This document shows, one piece after another, positions 11,733 to 22,836 of a stretch of 64,000 bases of DNA. Source of the DNA: Candidatus Heimdallarchaeum endolithica. GTDB taxonomy: Archaea > Asgardarchaeota > Heimdallarchaeia > Heimdallarchaeales > Heimdallarchaeaceae. The position numbers and the translations under genes were made by a program. Location: positions 2,144,001 through 2,208,000 of the forward strand of contig CP084167.1 of the NCBI GenBank assembly GCA_021513715.1, read 5' to 3'. Within the stretch, counting starts at the first letter, position 1. The number at the start of each line of letters is the position of its first letter. A model generated the notes under the pieces. That model saw nothing but the letters and a program-made list of their open reading frames with translations. It was not told the origin of the DNA and did not search any database.

Positions 11733-12179
11733 ATGGGTAAGGAAATAACAATTAAACTTCCTGATGGTACTATTATTAGCGTACCAGAGGGATCCAGTAC
11801 TGAGACCATTAGAACTATTATTTCTTTAGTAACAGGAAAAGGTGAAACACTAGATATAGAAGAGGAAGTTACTAAAATAAATACGCAAAACGAACTTCTA
11901 AGTGCTTCAAAGAAAGAAAGAATAGCTTCAATTGTGAGGAATCACTACCCTGAAAATGATTGGTTTACATCTAACGATATTGAAATACTTTATTCAAAGA
12001 TCTTTAATGAAGGTATAAGGTTAAGTACTGTAAGTACTACTTTATCCAGAATGGCTGATGAAGGTTTACTTACAAGGCGTGGTAATGTTTCACAGCGTTA
12101 TTACGCTGTGACTAAAAAATTGTTAAATGCTTATGGAGAACTGGATATTCATTCAATTCCTGATTTAATTTCTAAGTAA
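11733..12179 (+). CDS. Winged-helix DNA-binding protein
   Basis: WFTSNDI...LSTVSTTLSRMADEGLLTRRG..RYY winged-helix pattern. Confidence 0.8.
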   Translation: MGKEITIKLPDGTIISVPEGSSTETIRTIISLVTGKGETLDIEEEVTKINTQNELLSASKKERIASIVRNHYPENDWFTSNDIEILYSKIFNEGIRLSTVSTTLSRMADEGLLTRRGNVSQRYYAVTKKLLNAYGELDIHSIPDLISK

Positions 12180-12378
12180 AGTTTTAGTTTATTTATAATT
12201 TATTTTTAATATTTATCTACTTTTTCTCGCTGAAAACTCAATTTTTTGTTTATTATATCTTACCACATAAATAAATATTGTGTGGTAAGATAGTTCCTTT
12301 TTGTGATAGCAGCAAAAACACACTTTTATTTTTGTTTTATATTGATTCTATTTGTAGACCCTTTTGTTATTATCCTCT

Positions 12379-12752: not shown

Positions 12753-13649
12753 GTGGTTAAAATGACTGCAAAAAGCGTTGCGAAACAAGAGAAGACAATT
12801 GATGAGATGATTAGCGAGATACAGGATAAATACAATATTGTTGGTCGTGAAAGAGAACTTAGAAAATGCTTAGCTGCTAAACTAGCTGAAAGACATATTT
12901 TGCTAGAAGGCGATGTAGGTGTAGGAAAAACTACATTAGCTCATGCTATTGCTTCCTATTTTTCACAAAATATTGAGAGAGTGGATGGTGATGAACGTTA
13001 TAGTAGTTCCAAACTAGTAGGCCACTTTGATCCTCCTATGGTAATAGAAAAAGGATATAGTTGGGAATCTTTTGTTACAGGAGCATTAACAAAAGCTATG
13101 CAAGATGGAGCTATACTTTTTCTTAACGAGCTTAATCGTATGCCTGAAGGCACTCAGAATGTTCTATTAGCTGCAATGGACGAGGGTACTATTATTTTAC
13201 CTAAATTAGGTGAAGTGAAAGCTAAAGATGGATTCTTTATAATAAGTGCTATGAATCCAGCAGAACTTGTAGCCACAACTCCATTAAGTGAGGCTTTAAG
13301 AGATAGATTTGTTTGGGTTCGTTTAAATTATCAATCAGAAGAAGAAGAAGAAAATATTGTTCGTGTAAAAACAGGAATAAAAGATGATAAAATTGTCAAA
13401 ATTGCGGTAAAAATTGTTAGAAAAACAAGAGATTGGCCTGACTTACGGAGAGGTTCCTCAATTCGTGGTGCAATAGATTTAGCTTCAATAATTAGATTCT
13501 TAGACCCTAATGATATTGATTCTTGGATTGATAGTAGTATTATGGCTTTAGCTACTAAAATAGAATTAGAAGATGGGGTAGAAAGTCAAGTAGAAGATGT
13601 AATAAAAGAAATTGTAAATAAGGTGTTTGAAGAAGAGGATTTTTTCTAA
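12753..13649 (+). CDS. moxR: MoxR-family AAA+ ATPase
   Basis: LEGDVGVGKT, LVGHFDP, LNELNR, AMNP, LSEALRDRF. Confidence 0.92.
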   Translation: MVKMTAKSVAKQEKTIDEMISEIQDKYNIVGRERELRKCLAAKLAERHILLEGDVGVGKTTLAHAIASYFSQNIERVDGDERYSSSKLVGHFDPPMVIEKGYSWESFVTGALTKAMQDGAILFLNELNRMPEGTQNVLLAAMDEGTIILPKLGEVKAKDGFFIISAMNPAELVATTPLSEALRDRFVWVRLNYQSEEEEENIVRVKTGIKDDKIVKIAVKIVRKTRDWPDLRRGSSIRGAIDLASIIRFLDPNDIDSWIDSSIMALATKIELEDGVESQVEDVIKEIVNKVFEEEDFF

Positions 13650-13705
13650 CAGAGGGGAGGGACATAAGTTTTGATCTTCAAAAGCCTTACGTTTACAGAG
13701 GACGA

Positions 13706-14725
13706 ATGGACAAAAATAAACTACTTGAAGCAGAAATAGTCTCAGGAAAAAGAAATCCCTCTGTGTACTCTAGCCTTTCAGACGGTATGAGTTTCTATGA
13801 GATAAAAAAACAGACAGAGTTAGCTATTGATGTAAATAATATGCCTGCTATTCAAGGATTAGCTATATCAAACAAATTTGCTGTAGCAGAAGCTTTAAAC
13901 TCAAAAAAAGGTTACACCCTTTTAGCTCGAAGAGCAGCAAAAGGAGACAGTAGTGCTCCAGAATTGTTTTTTATGTTACGGACTGCAATAGACGATAAAA
14001 TGAGACCTATTTTCCGAAGATTGGCTAGACAAGTTATCTTGAAAACAGCCTATGGCATAACTGGTCAAGGTATCCGAGGTGAGGTTTTTGAACAAACAGA
14101 ATTTGAGCCAGGTTTAGACGAATTTGATATTGATGAAACCTTGGAGCGCTTTTTACAAAATCGAAGTAGAGTATTGCATAAGGAAGATATTGTAACTTTA
14201 GAACGCAAAGAACGGTTAAAAACAGCTGTATTGATTTTTGATACTTCTGGTTCTTTGTATGGAGAAAAGTTTACAACTGCAGCTCTTGCAGTAGCAGTTA
14301 TGGCTTATAACTTAGCAAGAGATAATTTTAGTGTAGTATTATTTAATACAAAAGCAACTGTTATTAAAAGAATGAAAGAAAGAGTAAGAACTGACGAATT
14401 GGTAAATAGAATATTAGAAAGTGAAAGTGCTGGATATACTAATATTGCTGAAGGTCTGAAATACGGCGGTCTCGAATTAGAGAAAATAAAAAGAAAAAAT
14501 AAATTTGGTATTTTGATAACTGATGGTGCATTTAATAGAGGAGGAGACCCACGAAAATATTTAATGTATTATCCTAAATTACATGTTATAGCACTTCCAT
14601 CAAAGCATGATTGGGGTACTAGGTTGTGTAAAGATCTTGCGAGGTTAGGACGAGGAAAATTTGCTGAAATAAAAAGTTATAATTCTTTACCTAGAGTATT
14701 GATGAGACTATTAAAACAGGTATAA
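13706..14725 (+). CDS. VWA-domain protein, MoxR partner; its frame is open back to 13631, so it may be reached by -1 frameshift
   Basis: MIDAS DTSGS, YTNIAEGL, ITDG; FDIDETL pre-VWA motif. Confidence 0.9.
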   Translation: MDKNKLLEAEIVSGKRNPSVYSSLSDGMSFYEIKKQTELAIDVNNMPAIQGLAISNKFAVAEALNSKKGYTLLARRAAKGDSSAPELFFMLRTAIDDKMRPIFRRLARQVILKTAYGITGQGIRGEVFEQTEFEPGLDEFDIDETLERFLQNRSRVLHKEDIVTLERKERLKTAVLIFDTSGSLYGEKFTTAALAVAVMAYNLARDNFSVVLFNTKATVIKRMKERVRTDELVNRILESESAGYTNIAEGLKYGGLELEKIKRKNKFGILITDGAFNRGGDPRKYLMYYPKLHVIALPSKHDWGTRLCKDLARLGRGKFAEIKSYNSLPRVLMRLLKQV

Positions 14726-17661: not shown

Positions 17662-20600
17662 ATGGAATTATCAGATGACGAGCTAATTTCCGTAAATGTC
17701 AAAGAATATTTTGAGGAAATTAATTCATTGATAGAACAAACTTATAAAATTGCCGAACAAGCAAGAAAAAAAGGTTATGATCCTTCTATTGAAGTTGAAA
17801 TACCTATTGCCAAAGATATTGCTGATCGAGTAGAAGGATTAATTGGACCTAAAGGAGTAGGTAAAAGAATTCGAGAACTTGAGAAAGAAGGATTGTCTCG
17901 AGAAAGTGTAGCGTTTAGAGTTGCTGAAGAAATTGCTGAAGGTAAATTTTTTTCTTCTGAAAAAGTAAATCTTGCTGAACAAGCTATCCGAACATCATTG
18001 GCGATAATAACTGAGAGCATAACAGCAGCTCCTCTTGAGGGTATTGCAAAAGTGAAAATTAAACAGAATGATGACGGGTCAGATTATTTAGCTGTTTATT
18101 ATGCTGGGCCAATACGTTCTGCTGGTGGTACAGCTGCAGGTATGAGTGTATTGCTTGCAGATCACATTCGGAGAGCATTAAAACTTGATAGATATAAACC
18201 CACAGAAAGAGAAATAGAGCGGATGGTAGAAGAAATAGATCTTTATAATAAAGTAATGCATTTACAACTTCCTACAACTAAAGAGGAGCAAAGATTTGCA
18301 GCAAGAAATCTTCCAATTGAAATCACTGGAGAACCCACTGAGCAAGTTGAAGTTTCTGGAAACAGAGATTTAAAACGTGTTGAAACAAATAGACTTAGAG
18401 GTGGTGCTTGCTTAGTTTTTAATGATGGGATTGTAGGTAGAGTAAAAAAACTTGAAAAAAGGGTGTCGAAACATAAATTAGAGGGATGGGATTGGTTTGC
18501 AGAATTAATACAAATACATGCAAGTCAGAATGTTGAGGATTCTGCAGAATCTGATAAAGAAAAGGGCTCAATTAAACAAGAAATTGAACAAGATAATTTA
18601 TTTATTAAACCAGATACAGGATATATTCAAGATGTAATTGGTGGAAGACCAGTTTTTAGTCATCCATCAGCGAAAGGTGGTTTTAGAATTAGATATGGTC
18701 GTTCTAGGACTACAGGACTAGCTGCAATGGGTGTTCATCCTGCACTTTTTGCAATCACAAATGATTTTTTGGTCTGCGGAACACATTTGCGAACAGAAAG
18801 ACCAGGAAAAGGAGCTATTGTCATGCCAGTGGATTCTATTCATCCACCTATTGTGCTTCTAAAAGACGGTACTGTTTGTAAAGTTAATTCCTATGAGGAA
18901 GGTATTAAATTAAAAGATCAAATAGAAAAAATCCTTTTTCTTGGAGATATGCTTTATGGGGTTGGTGAATTTAATCAGTTTAACCATGACCTTGTTCCTT
19001 CAGGATATTGTGAAGAGTGGTGGGCAAAAGAACTTGAAAAACAGTTAATGAATTTCTCTGAAAAAGAAATAAATCAATTTTTTAGAAATAAAAAACATAA
19101 ATTTGATAAATTCATAAAAGAACCATTAACCATTATTCCAACTGCTGAAGAAGCTATAGGATTGTCTCTTTTACTTGATATTCCTCTACATCCAGAATAT
19201 ACCTATCATTGGAATGATATTTCAATTTCTGCATATATTCAATTACGTGAATATATTTCGTTATATTACAATAATGCTGAAAATTTGGAGATACCAAATA
19301 ACGAAAAAATAAAGCATATTTTAGAAGAGATATGTATTCCTCACTCAATTAAAGAAGATAAAATTCTATTTGGAGAACATTCACAAACTTTGTTAATATC
19401 GTTAGGCTTTAAAAATGGAAATTTACTTCCAATAGAAAATAAAGCTAAAACAGTTGTAGAAGCAATCAATTTTTACAATTATATCCAAGTGAGAGATAAG
19501 TGTCCCTGTTACACTGGTGCGAGAATGGGTCGCCCTGAAAAGGCTAAAAGTAGAAAAATGAAACCTCCTGTACATCTTCTTTTTCCAATTGGCGAAGCAG
19601 GGGGTAATCAAAGAAATATTGTTTCAGCGAGTGAAAAAAACATTATTGAAATAGAATTAGTACAAAGAAAATGTCCAATATGTGGTTCTACTACTCATTT
19701 ATCTTTATGTTCGCGCTGTAATGTTGTAACAGAAATTGTTAAATTTTGCCCGAGATGTGGATTAGAATCTAATGATGATAAATGTAAAAGATGTGGAATA
19801 CCTTTAATTAGTTATAAAACTAAACCCTTTCCTATTAATGAAGAATTTAGAAAAATTGCAAGAGGATTCAACTCTGATTTACCTAAAAACGTAAAAGCAG
19901 TTAAAAAATTGATGAATAAACATCGTATTCCTGAATTCATAATTAAAGGAATATTACGTTCTATAAATAATGTATTTGTGTATCGTGATGGTACAATACG
20001 TTTTGATGCAACTGATGCTATAATTACTCATTTTAGACCAAGAGAAATTGGCGTTTCTGTTTCAAAACTTTATTCTATAGGCTATACTCATGATATTTAT
20101 GGTAATTTATTGGAAAATGAAGATCAATTATTAGAATTAAAAATTCAGGATGTAATTGTTAATAAGGAAGGTGGTAAATATCTTCTACAGGTATCTCATT
20201 TCATTGATGAGTTGTTAAAACGGTTATATGGGCTTCCTCCTTTTTACAACGCAAAAACAATGAATGATCTAGTTGGTCATTTAATTATTGGTTTAGCTCC
20301 TCATACTTCAGCAGGTATTGCCGGAAGATTAATTGGATTCACTGAAGCTAAAGTAATTTTAGCTCATCCATATTGGCACGCAGCAAAAAGAAGAAACTGT
20401 TTATTTCCAAGTGAACAATTACTTATTTGGGACGAAAAAAAGCAACAAGTTATTGTGAAAAGTATTGGAGAAATAGTTGAGGAAGAGTTAAAAGCAGGAG
20501 CTAAAAGTAAGCTGGTTGATGATTTTGGGACTTTTGTAATTGAGAATCTTCACAAAGAATGGAAAGTTGTTAGTCTGGATCAAAAGAGATCTTCACCTAT

Positions 20601-22836
20601 TTTACAACCCATCAAACATTGGATTAAAGGGAAAAGTGAAAAATGGCTACAAATAAAAACAAAAAGTGGAAGCGAAATAACAGTTACACCAGAGCATAAT
20701 ATGCTTGTTTTGAATGAACAAACAAATAATTTTGAGAAAGTAAAAGCAAGAATCTTACAGGTAGGAGAATATATTGCTGTTAAAACAAAGATTCCAGAGT
20801 TATGTATTCAACCTAAAAAAACAGTAAATATTCTAGAAGAGTTAGCAAAAAATTTACCTGATAGCAAGAATTTTGCTGAATTTAAACATGCAGTAAGACT
20901 TAGAAAAGCTGGAGGTTGGATACAAAACAAAATAGAACTTTTTTGTAGTAAGCTTTCTCAAGAAAATAAGATTAAAACTAATTCTTCTTCATGCACTAAA
21001 ATAATTCTAAATTATATCCTTTCAAAAGGAATTGATGTACCTCATCATACTTACTTGTTTTCTAATCATTGGTTTGATTCCATTCCTTTATCTCACTTAG
21101 AACTATTACAAAAAGAAGGAGTGTTCAAGTGGCATGAGGTTCCTTCTGATGCGAGATTAGGAATGGCTAGGGATGATTTTACCGTTGCGCCCTATTTTCC
21201 TTTTAATAAAGAATTAATGAAAATTCTAGGTTATTACATTTCTGAGGGGCATATTCGAGACAACAAGAACTGTTATCAAGTTAATTTTTCTGTTCCAGAC
21301 GAAAAAATTAGAGAACATTTGGTGAAAATAATAAAACGAAATCTAGGTATCACTCCCTATATCAGTGAAAAAAGAAATGTTATATGCTCAGGGAGAATAC
21401 TAGCCTACCTATTCGCATACGCATGGAATATGGGAAAAGGAGCTTACAGTAAGCGCTTACCAAACTTTCTCTATACATTACCAAATGACTATAAGTTTGC
21501 ATTTATCTCTGCCTATTTGGATGGAGATGGAACGCTTTCCAAAGATGTAGGTGAAATATCATTCTATTCTGTTTCAAATGAACTATTAAAAGATATAACC
21601 TATCTATTTTCCACAATTGGAGTATTTGTAAGGTCTAGGGTATCATCTCCTGAAGGACATTATGGTAAAAAAGTGCTGGCAAACTATAAAAAGTTAGGAA
21701 AAGAACCAAAAAAAACAGTTGTTCACAAAATATCTATTAGGGGGGCAGACCTATGGATAATGCCTCACCTAGATCTAATAAATCAAATTAAAAAAGAAAA
21801 ATTAAATCAATTTATCATAAAAGGCTTTCCTAAAAAGAGGAGGATAAAATACAATAATCAATATTATGAACTTAAAGAAGCACATAATACTATATGTGAT
21901 CAGATAGCAGAAATAAATAGTATTACAAAAGAAGAATCATCATATTGTTTGGAAGTTAAAACAATAAGAAATGACATAATGTTACATAATTTCCAAACAA
22001 CTAGTTGCATTACGATGAACTGCGATGGAGATGAGGACAGTATACTTCTAGCTCTTGATGCCTTTCTTAATTTCTCTAAATTCTTTTTACCAGAAGTTAG
22101 AGGAGGTCAAATGGATGCTCCACTAATTTTAGTTTCTACAATAGATCCTTTTGAGGTTGATGATGAGTCTCATAATGTTGATACAGGTAACTCTTATCCT
22201 TTGTCTTTTTATGAGTCTACACTTAACTCATTACCAGCAAAGAAAGTTCTCCCCTTAATTGACATTGTAAGCCACAGGTTAAGTACAAAAGCAGCTTATG
22301 AAGGTTTTTCTTACAGTCATGAGACCTCTTCAATTTTCGTTGGAGAAAAATCTTCTCTTTATACTCGTTTAGCTACGATGAAAGAAAAAGTAGATGCTCA
22401 ACTAGAACTTGCTACTAAAATCAGAGCTGTTGATGTTGATGATGTGGCTACAAGAGTTATTTTCAAACAATTTCTCCCAGATCTTATAGGCAATATGCGT
22501 AGATTTGGTAGTCAAAAAATACGTTGCACAAATTGTAATGCCACTTACCGTCGAATACCTCTAGCAGGATATTGTCCAAAATGTGGAGCAAGCAAACTAA
22601 ATCTTACTGTTTTTGAAAAGTCTGTAACCAAATATCTGAGTATTATCGATTATTTAGTATCAAAGTATTCGGTTTCAGAATATTTACGATCTAGGATAGA
22701 TGTACTAAAACAAAACATTTTAACAATGTTTCTCCCTGATGATGGGTCAACTGATAAGAAATCAAGACGCAAAACAAGAAAAACAGGGAAAAAGAAAACT
22801 TCTGTTAACTTATCAGATTTTCTCCTTGAACAGTAA
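17662..22836 (+). CDS. polC: DNA polymerase D large subunit DP2, intein-containing precursor
   Basis: AGPIRSAGGT, RYGRSR, RMGRPEK, HAAKRRN...CDGDED catalytic region, C-terminal Zn fingers. Confidence 0.97.
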   Translation: MELSDDELISVNVKEYFEEINSLIEQTYKIAEQARKKGYDPSIEVEIPIAKDIADRVEGLIGPKGVGKRIRELEKEGLSRESVAFRVAEEIAEGKFFSSEKVNLAEQAIRTSLAIITESITAAPLEGIAKVKIKQNDDGSDYLAVYYAGPIRSAGGTAAGMSVLLADHIRRALKLDRYKPTEREIERMVEEIDLYNKVMHLQLPTTKEEQRFAARNLPIEITGEPTEQVEVSGNRDLKRVETNRLRGGACLVFNDGIVGRVKKLEKRVSKHKLEGWDWFAELIQIHASQNVEDSAESDKEKGSIKQEIEQDNLFIKPDTGYIQDVIGGRPVFSHPSAKGGFRIRYGRSRTTGLAAMGVHPALFAITNDFLVCGTHLRTERPGKGAIVMPVDSIHPPIVLLKDGTVCKVNSYEEGIKLKDQIEKILFLGDMLYGVGEFNQFNHDLVPSGYCEEWWAKELEKQLMNFSEKEINQFFRNKKHKFDKFIKEPLTIIPTAEEAIGLSLLLDIPLHPEYTYHWNDISISAYIQLREYISLYYNNAENLEIPNNEKIKHILEEICIPHSIKEDKILFGEHSQTLLISLGFKNGNLLPIENKAKTVVEAINFYNYIQVRDKCPCYTGARMGRPEKAKSRKMKPPVHLLFPIGEAGGNQRNIVSASEKNIIEIELVQRKCPICGSTTHLSLCSRCNVVTEIVKFCPRCGLESNDDKCKRCGIPLISYKTKPFPINEEFRKIARGFNSDLPKNVKAVKKLMNKHRIPEFIIKGILRSINNVFVYRDGTIRFDATDAIITHFRPREIGVSVSKLYSIGYTHDIYGNLLENEDQLLELKIQDVIVNKEGGKYLLQVSHFIDELLKRLYGLPPFYNAKTMNDLVGHLIIGLAPHTSAGIAGRLIGFTEAKVILAHPYWHAAKRRNCLFPSEQLLIWDEKKQQVIVKSIGEIVEEELKAGAKSKLVDDFGTFVIENLHKEWKVVSLDQKRSSPILQPIKHWIKGKSEKWLQIKTKSGSEITVTPEHNMLVLNEQTNNFEKVKARILQVGEYIAVKTKIPELCIQPKKTVNILEELAKNLPDSKNFAEFKHAVRLRKAGGWIQNKIELFCSKLSQENKIKTNSSSCTKIILNYILSKGIDVPHHTYLFSNHWFDSIPLSHLELLQKEGVFKWHEVPSDARLGMARDDFTVAPYFPFNKELMKILGYYISEGHIRDNKNCYQVNFSVPDEKIREHLVKIIKRNLGITPYISEKRNVICSGRILAYLFAYAWNMGKGAYSKRLPNFLYTLPNDYKFAFISAYLDGDGTLSKDVGEISFYSVSNELLKDITYLFSTIGVFVRSRVSSPEGHYGKKVLANYKKLGKEPKKTVVHKISIRGADLWIMPHLDLINQIKKEKLNQFIIKGFPKKRRIKYNNQYYELKEAHNTICDQIAEINSITKEESSYCLEVKTIRNDIMLHNFQTTSCITMNCDGDEDSILLALDAFLNFSKFFLPEVRGGQMDAPLILVSTIDPFEVDDESHNVDTGNSYPLSFYESTLNSLPAKKVLPLIDIVSHRLSTKAAYEGFSYSHETSSIFVGEKSSLYTRLATMKEKVDAQLELATKIRAVDVDDVATRVIFKQFLPDLIGNMRRFGSQKIRCTNCNATYRRIPLAGYCPKCGASKLNLTVFEKSVTKYLSIIDYLVSKYSVSEYLRSRIDVLKQNILTMFLPDDGSTDKKSRRKTRKTGKKKTSVNLSDFLLEQ
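20398..22020 (+). mobile_element. 541-aa intein with LAGLIDADG homing endonuclease in DP2
   Basis: Splits KRRN|CDGDED; starts CLFPSE, block B VTPEH, endonuclease motifs ILGYYISEG and FISAYLDGDG, ends ITMN before Cys+1. Confidence 0.95.

Follow-up and report, generated by a model that had tools for sequence, protein, structure and literature searches.

A MoxR-type AAA+ ATPase and its VWA neighbour in Asgard archaea as the likely products of one gene with programmed -1 frameshifting

Introduction

Among described systems, the frameshifted chlD genes (PMC3711429; PMC9227772; PMC5009743) come closest to the locus reported here. In both cases one locus gives, or in the Asgard case would give, an AAA-only and an AAA-VWA product; -1 shifts are commoner than +1 shifts; an AT-rich slip site is accompanied by a 3′ structure, a weak one in the present genome; fused homologues exist; and the arrangement is found in archaea too and in genomes without the large chelatase subunit. 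For chlD, shifting of 10-63% has been measured in E. coli (PMC3711429; PMC9227772). The differences lie in the signals: the Asgard site is U-rich (X_XNU_UUY, with a +1 variant UUU_UUU_CGN) whereas that of chlD is A_AAA_AAR, and in many Asgard families a kink-turn-like element follows the slip site.

A MoxR-type ring paired with a MIDAS-bearing VWA partner is also familiar from NorQ/NorD, CbbQ/CbbO and CobS/CobT (PMC13036017; bioRxiv 10.64898/2026.10.09.757910). In those systems, however, the partners are separate genes and proteins, whereas here the VWA part would be tethered to an ATPase subunit by recoding; furthermore, the Asgard Walker B motif has NE and the client is unidentified. Midasin (Rea1, Mdn1) resembles the present locus in having an AAA ring on which one MIDAS domain docks, but carries six AAA modules per chain as against the single module seen here.

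As regards frameshifting itself, a 2021 review counted one demonstrated archaeal chromosomal -1 case, Saccharolobus fucA1, alongside predicted viral and chlD cases (PMC8211752). Like the Asgard locus, fucA1 combines a -1 shift in an archaeal chromosome with an AU-rich heptamer and a stem-loop. Its frameshift, however, is confined to two S. solfataricus strains, and the full-length enzyme alone is known to work, whereas the Asgard signal is conserved phylum-wide and both products are plausible subunits. Two viral sites (PMC5009743) are also instructive. That of pea enation mosaic virus, G_GAU_UUU_UGG_UAG (-1), has the same heptamer as our locus with a stop one codon later, the stop codon being needed there, and that of influenza PA-X, UCC_UUU_CGU (+1), contains the UUU_CGN core of the Asgard +1 loci. 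Both are viral, unlike the Asgard locus, a cellular archaeal gene whose function is inferred.

Here we propose that adjacent ATPase and VWA open reading frames (ORFs) in the genome of an Asgard archaeon, a Heimdallarchaeum, are likely to be a single recoded gene, expressed by programmed -1 ribosomal frameshifting, an inference that rests on sequence comparison only, with no RNA or protein data. No paper describing this MoxR/VWA frameshift system was found in the literature searched, which is limited evidence of novelty.

Results and Discussion

Organisation of the locus

The locus lies on the + strand of a 64,000-nt window, the whole stretch of DNA analysed, which is part of a single-contig 3.33-Mb genome that is 92.6% complete. 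The ATPase ORF (12753..13649) begins at GTG 12753, giving 298 aa, or at ATG 12762, giving the 295 aa of the database entry, and matches Pfam AAA_5 with an E value of 1e-22; its 295-aa relatives are named MoxR family ATPase in databases. Its Walker A motif, read from the sequence as GDVGVGKT (12909..12932), has G50, K56 and T57 invariant in the ATPase alignment. The Walker B motif (13125..13130) is a variant with NE for the usual DE, N122 and E123 being invariant in all 38 aligned ATPases of the family, paralogues included.

The 3′ end of the ATPase ORF reads GAG GAT TTT TTC TAA, with the stop codon at 13647..13649. The annotated VWA ORF, from ATG 13706 (13706..14725, 339 aa), lies in the -1 frame relative to the ATPase ORF, the offset being 953 nt, and would form the C-terminal part of the fusion. 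It encodes a helical N-domain, a NorD-like finger region and a VWA domain whose MIDAS comprises DxSxS (14240..14254; D199, S201 and S203 invariant in the alignment), a near-invariant Thr (T265, 14438-14440) and an invariant Asp (D293, 14522-14524). Databases carry this part as a separate protein. Upstream, the -1 frame is closed by a TGA at 13628..13630 and open from 13631, 16 nt ahead of the ATPase stop, so that a shift would be confined to 13631-13646. Two heptamers fall in this interval: G_GAU_UUU (13637..13643), which conforms to the family consensus X_XNU_UUY with Asp in the P site and Phe in the A site, and has the stop one codon beyond it; and the overlapping perfect heptamer U_UUU_UUC (13640..13646), read from the sequence. 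Slips on either yield the identical junction peptide EEEDFF/LTEGR, the slash marking the junction. A 20-codon linker in the -1 frame (13646..13705), predicted to be disordered (pLDDT <50 for residues 1-18), leads to the VWA ORF. The predicted fusion product is 654 or 657 aa long, alongside the short ATPase of 295 or 298 aa.

A preliminary description of the region had reported a slippery U_UUU_UUC before the stop and a VWA gene in a -1 frame open from 13631, and both statements held on rereading the sequence.

Phase, linker and start codons across orthologues

Orthologues were gathered from relatives and from across the Asgard phylum, in more than 100 genomes. Among 106 split Asgard orthologues the VWA frame is -1 in 97 and +1 in 9, and in not one is it frame 0; in all split loci, moreover, the VWA frame opens ahead of the ATPase stop. 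Paralogue pairs are at -1 in 13 cases out of 13, and a further set of loci divides into 29 at -1, 6 at +1 and 21 fused, again with none at frame 0. Between the ATPase stop and the conserved VWA core, the VWA frame contains no stop in 2166 codons; over the same stretch the +1 frame has 221 in 2069 codons and frame 0 has 62 in 2069.

In the family to which our locus belongs, the stop-to-ATG distance is 59, 62 or 65 nt. Over the eight codons ahead of the ATG, differences number 634 at third positions against 208 and 256 at first and second positions, and codon differences are synonymous in 569 cases and non-synonymous in 256. Differences fall mostly at third positions, and in the -1 frame the linker shows the pattern of a coding sequence.

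Start codons for a separate VWA protein are frequently absent. There is no ATG in 41 of the 97 -1 loci, and 21 of the 97 lack ATG, GTG and TTG alike in a search extending up to ten codons into the VWA core. Where our locus encodes Met at 13706, relatives have Y, L, I or F. Within this genome's own family the ATG is invariant and sits where the folded part begins, and the preceding Arg codon is NGA without exception (19/19 distinct blocks), so that a GAGG is retained. This GAGG lies 4 nt from the ATG, whereas the genome's own peak spacing is 7-10 nt.

Phase, open frame, coding linker and frequent start-codon absence are shown by these comparisons. An alignment of orthologues had been suggested as a check in the preliminary description, and its expectations of a conserved -1 phase, a linker free of stops and a coding signal in the linker were borne out. 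The same description took initiation of the VWA protein solely at 13706 as grounds for refutation; the ATG proves not to be conserved across relatives, while additional initiation there in this family is not excluded.

Two cautions apply. The loci are related, spanning about 20 families, and the counts consequently overstate independence; and cross-species tests, when applied to archaeal signals, are known not to be reliable (PMC3711429). The sister genome, Ca. Heimdallarchaeum aukensis CP084166, has a 99% identical ATPase. As to sequence quality, a metagenome contig of independent origin (L182), whose ATPase is 99% identical, has an identical 120-nt junction. Because that contig shares the junction and about 100 assemblies share the phase, an assembly or homopolymer error was rejected.

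The slip site

The sequence U_UUY is found close to the end of the ATPase ORF in 96 of the 97 -1 loci, against a background of 1.3% per codon in ATPase genes. It falls within the last seven codons in all 96 and in the last two codons only in 90/97; the lone -1 locus without it has A_AAC_CCU, itself a perfect heptamer. For comparison, among 1111 long ORFs of this genome, U_UUY is found in the last two codons of 40 and six U's before the last base in only 4. The last ATPase residues vary (FF, FL, FH, FP, FQ, FS or F followed by the stop) although U_UUY is fixed. U runs reach 6-8 in about half of the loci and are of only 3-4 in 29/97, while a second UUN codon is present in 47/97.

The base X preceding the P-site codon equals the first base of the following codon in 75/97 loci, and it covaries with that codon: A precedes AAU in 19/19 (background 0.43), G precedes GAU in 44/60 (background 0.22) and G precedes GGU in 4/4 (background 0.14). 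It is this covariation that identifies the family slip site as X_XNU_UUY. Heptamers in -1 loci include G_GAU_UUU (44), A_AAU_UUY (19) and G_GGU_UUU (4), and in most loci the stop codon lies zero or one codon past the site. Conservation of the motif is shown by comparison, and the earlier identification of U_UUU_UUC as the slip site holds only in part, the family-wide site being the overlapping, upstream G_GAU_UUU of the X_XNU_UUY type. The genome of Ca. Harpocratesius repetitus (L151) has the -1 form with U_CAU_UUU_CAU_stop.

RNA structure downstream of the slip site

The hairpin originally suggested at about 13661-13693 was not supported: its folding energy of -5.7 kcal/mol (z +0.12) is no better than that of shuffled sequences. 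A different, weak hairpin at 13652..13679, with an internal tandem GA/GA and no 3-nt bulge, has z scores of -1.7 to -2.2 in this genome and is weaker in the sister species. Across loci the folding signal peaks directly 3′ of the slip site (mean z -1.4) and is about 0 once 40 nt or more away in either direction. Family-wide there is structure at the 5-9 nt downstream distance expected of a stimulatory element, though in this genome it is weak.

In other Asgard families the positional equivalent of this stem is a kink-turn-like element, of which ours appears to be a degenerate form. A GA lies at +9/+10 past the Phe codon in 72/97 loci, and 28 of those 72 (28/97 of all loci) have the strict kink-turn pattern at a fixed offset, compared with 4% of control GA codons. 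Pairing in the C-stem is 0.84 versus 0.67 for shuffled partners and in the NC-stem 0.73 versus 0.47, neither value being matched in 5000 shuffles (0/5000 in each case). The kink-turn anchors were chosen irrespective of pairing. Asp at the bulge is encoded by GAU in 36/36 cases versus a background of 81%. Relatedness inflates these figures. The pattern is commoner where no second UUN codon is present (22/50) than where there is one (6/47). Covarying RNA structure in relatives is shown by these comparisons; that it represents a kink-turn-like hairpin following the slip site in many Asgard families is likely, but inferred from sequence alone. L7Ae-family genes are present. However, since the element in this genome has no bulge, stimulation by L7Ae is a hypothesis for relatives and not for this locus. 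A search of Rfam gave no match at the locus.

Fused, +1 and A-run variants

The sequence UUU_UUU_CGN is present in all 12 of the +1 loci checked and also in five in-frame fusions of one genus. That Asgard genus contains two members split at +1 (L155, L157) and five fused in frame (L156, L158, L159, L172, L173), the latter with stop-to-stop frames of 668-732 codons, and all seven keep UUU_UUU_CGN in identical register. Natural in-frame fusions, sought because the preliminary description had recommended looking for them, therefore exist, and this much is shown. In the five fused loci a +1 shift would meet a stop within about 2-11 codons, giving a short ATPase. These loci may represent an inverted, dnaX-like arrangement, a possibility resting solely on their sequences. 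In a tree of the ATPase domain the UUU_CGN forms appear at separate places and their monophyly is rejected (p-AU 0.002, quick tree), so the signal has been switched or lost more than once.

The 13 paralogous AAA-VWA pairs, which are from Heimdallarchaeia (L063-L075), mostly have A-run sites such as A_AAA_AAA; a second pair of this type was not found in our genome with a VWA query. Many metagenomic relatives similarly have A-run sites such as A_AAA_AAA, some on contigs of about 70% GC, and other relatives are plain 600-670-aa fusions without a slip site. Beyond the main Asgard clade (L108, L199, L218, L222-L231; one actinomycete and several high-GC contigs), the -1 form is kept with A-rich sites or, in the actinomycete locus, G_GGA_AAA, while others are plain fusions. 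A search for longer homologues returned one fusion only (P0001), its sensitivity being below that of the genome searches. Elsewhere in the present genome are four further MoxR-like ATPases (L032-L035), none of which has a VWA ORF of this family closer than 1.5 kb.

Protein domains and relationship to known families

The ATPase matches AAA_5 and AAA_3, with GvpN and MadB below cut-off, and its PDB profile matches are to 2r44, NorQ and CbbQ, of which NorQ is the best single-domain match at 49.8 bits. In the model of the VWA part (pLDDT 87), a helical domain and a finger region accompany a VWA fold whose MIDAS is intact, and the 18-residue linker is disordered. When this model was used in a structural search, NorD chains of NorQD occupied ranks 1-3 (E 7e-9). 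The locus has what would be expected of the MoxR/VWA systems, namely a MoxR-type AAA+ gene beside a VWA gene whose product has a finger, a MIDAS and a NorD-like fold. It also has the order AAA, acidic linker, VWA with intact MIDAS that is expected of ChlD. Complex prediction for ATPase and VWA part gave no usable answer (score 0.02) and speaks neither for nor against binding.

A frameshift like that of chlD had been proposed initially. As a mode of working the comparison holds, but membership in ChlD fails on model scores: TIGR02031 gives 22 bits against a cut-off of 500 and TIGR02442 gives 26 against 779, and even the natural fusion L158 reaches just 54 against 779. The ATPase itself falls far below the cut-offs of the ChlD, ChlI and CobS models, and this genome (92.6% complete, one contig) has no PF02514 match that would indicate a CobN/ChlH large chelatase subunit. 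The likeness to midasin, also suggested initially, is one of architecture only. Special kinship was rejected: the top PDB score is a sum over six domains, none of which exceeds 28.6 bits, compared with 49.8 for NorQ.

Proposed mechanism and alternatives

In the mechanism that we favour, most ribosomes would stop at 13647 and produce the short MoxR-type ATPase. A fraction would shift by -1 on G_GAU_UUU or the overlapping U_UUU_UUC, with help from the 3′ hairpin and from pausing at the stop codon close by, and would then read the linker and the VWA ORF to give the ATPase-VWA fusion. That one locus makes both a 298-aa ATPase and a fusion of about 657 aa, as first proposed, is supported by comparison, the frameshift itself not having been shown directly; the ribosomal nature of the shift and its efficiency are inferences. 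Most probably both products would join in one AAA+ ring, the MIDAS-containing VWA adaptor being present on a minority of its subunits. In NorQD, CbbQO and CobST the VWA finger enters the hexamer pore (PMC13036017; bioRxiv 10.64898/2026.10.09.757910), and by analogy a minority of VWA-bearing subunits would be sensible here; the adaptor finger would enter the pore and the complex would remodel an unidentified client or insert metal into it. Ring composition and client are inferred, and the original suggestion that frameshifting fixes the stoichiometry of the ring likewise remains inference. Independent initiation at ATG 13706 could conceivably add a third product, a stand-alone VWA protein.

One alternative is that of two ordinary co-transcribed genes, with VWA translation beginning at ATG 13706 or some other start codon and the U-run merely reflecting a conserved DFF C-terminus. 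In its favour are the invariance of the ATG in this family with a GAGG upstream, the annotation of a separate 339-aa VWA protein in databases, and the fact that split MoxR/VWA pairs are the norm (PMC13036017). We nevertheless consider it unlikely: the ATG is missing in 41/97 loci and the GAGG is closer to it (4 nt) than the genomic peak of 7-10 nt, the linker behaves as coding sequence in the -1 frame and no split locus is at frame 0, and the terminal ATPase residues vary whereas U_UUY does not. Termination followed by reinitiation at a non-standard codon beside the stop, making a stand-alone VWA protein whose N-terminus is the linker, would account for the coding linker and the missing ATG, and a UUG does overlap the stop in several loci. 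That UUG, however, is present only where the stop is UGA, and the heptamer covariation, the switch to UUU_CGN and the retention of the motif in in-frame fusions are all left unexplained, making this the least credible of the alternatives.

Transcriptional slippage, in which a U or A is gained or lost as RNA polymerase transcribes the run and ordinary translation then yields the fusion, is consistent with U-runs of 6-8 in about half of the loci, with the occurrence of both -1 and +1 phases, and with the chlD cassettes in which poly-A length tracked efficiency (PMC3711429). Against it, runs of only 3-4 U in 29/97 loci are short for a process that normally needs more than 7-8, the covariation is tied to the codon frame (X_XNU_UUY), and the fixed spacer to the 3′ structure and the CGN requirement at +1 loci are ribosomal signatures. 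It too therefore seems improbable, and programmed -1 ribosomal frameshifting remains the preferred reading.

A bolder version of the frameshifting hypothesis can be entertained, tentatively and as a whole: that this is an ancient, phylum-wide Asgard recoding which sets the composition of an AAA+/VWA chaperone ring; that in many lineages a kink-turn bound by L7Ae stimulates the shift; and that lineages alternate between -1 (X_XNU_UUY), +1 (UUU_UUU_CGN) and inverted forms, the last being an in-frame fusion cut short by a +1 shift, with both products kept throughout.

If frameshifting is confirmed, a phylum-wide -1 case would be present in the closest prokaryotic relatives of eukaryotes at loci now annotated as two genes, and the 'one gene, two ring subunits' solution would extend from chelatases to the MoxR/VWA chaperone family. 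Stimulation by an L7Ae-bound kink-turn, if true, would constitute a frameshift in archaea under the control of a host protein. The natural series of -1, +1 and fused variants offers material on how archaeal ribosomes shift and whether L7Ae can tune the shift, and bears on the possible origins of AAA-VWA fusions such as ChlD and midasin. The enriched lineages Ca. Heimdallarchaeum and Ca. Harpocratesius repetitus, the latter having the -1 form, would allow the system to be tested.

Neighbouring features

A scan for bacterial promoters and terminators gave counts at chance level. Upstream of the ATPase gene, the intergenic region contains an AT-rich inverted repeat of 15 bp with a T run behind it (12256-12292). 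The ORF at 11733-12179 (148 aa), which adjoins the locus only in this genus, has no Pfam or NCBIfam match; by eye it has a short β-rich N-terminus and a winged-helix-like C-terminus. Downstream, a PAPS-reductase/PUA/4Fe-4S gene (PRK13795, 14730-16733) starts 4 nt past the VWA stop, an adjacency that is kept across this family and was unseen beyond it in the flanks examined. Further on, a 1724-aa ORF (17662-22836) resembles, by eye, the large subunit of DNA polymerase D with an intein bearing a LAGLIDADG-type motif.
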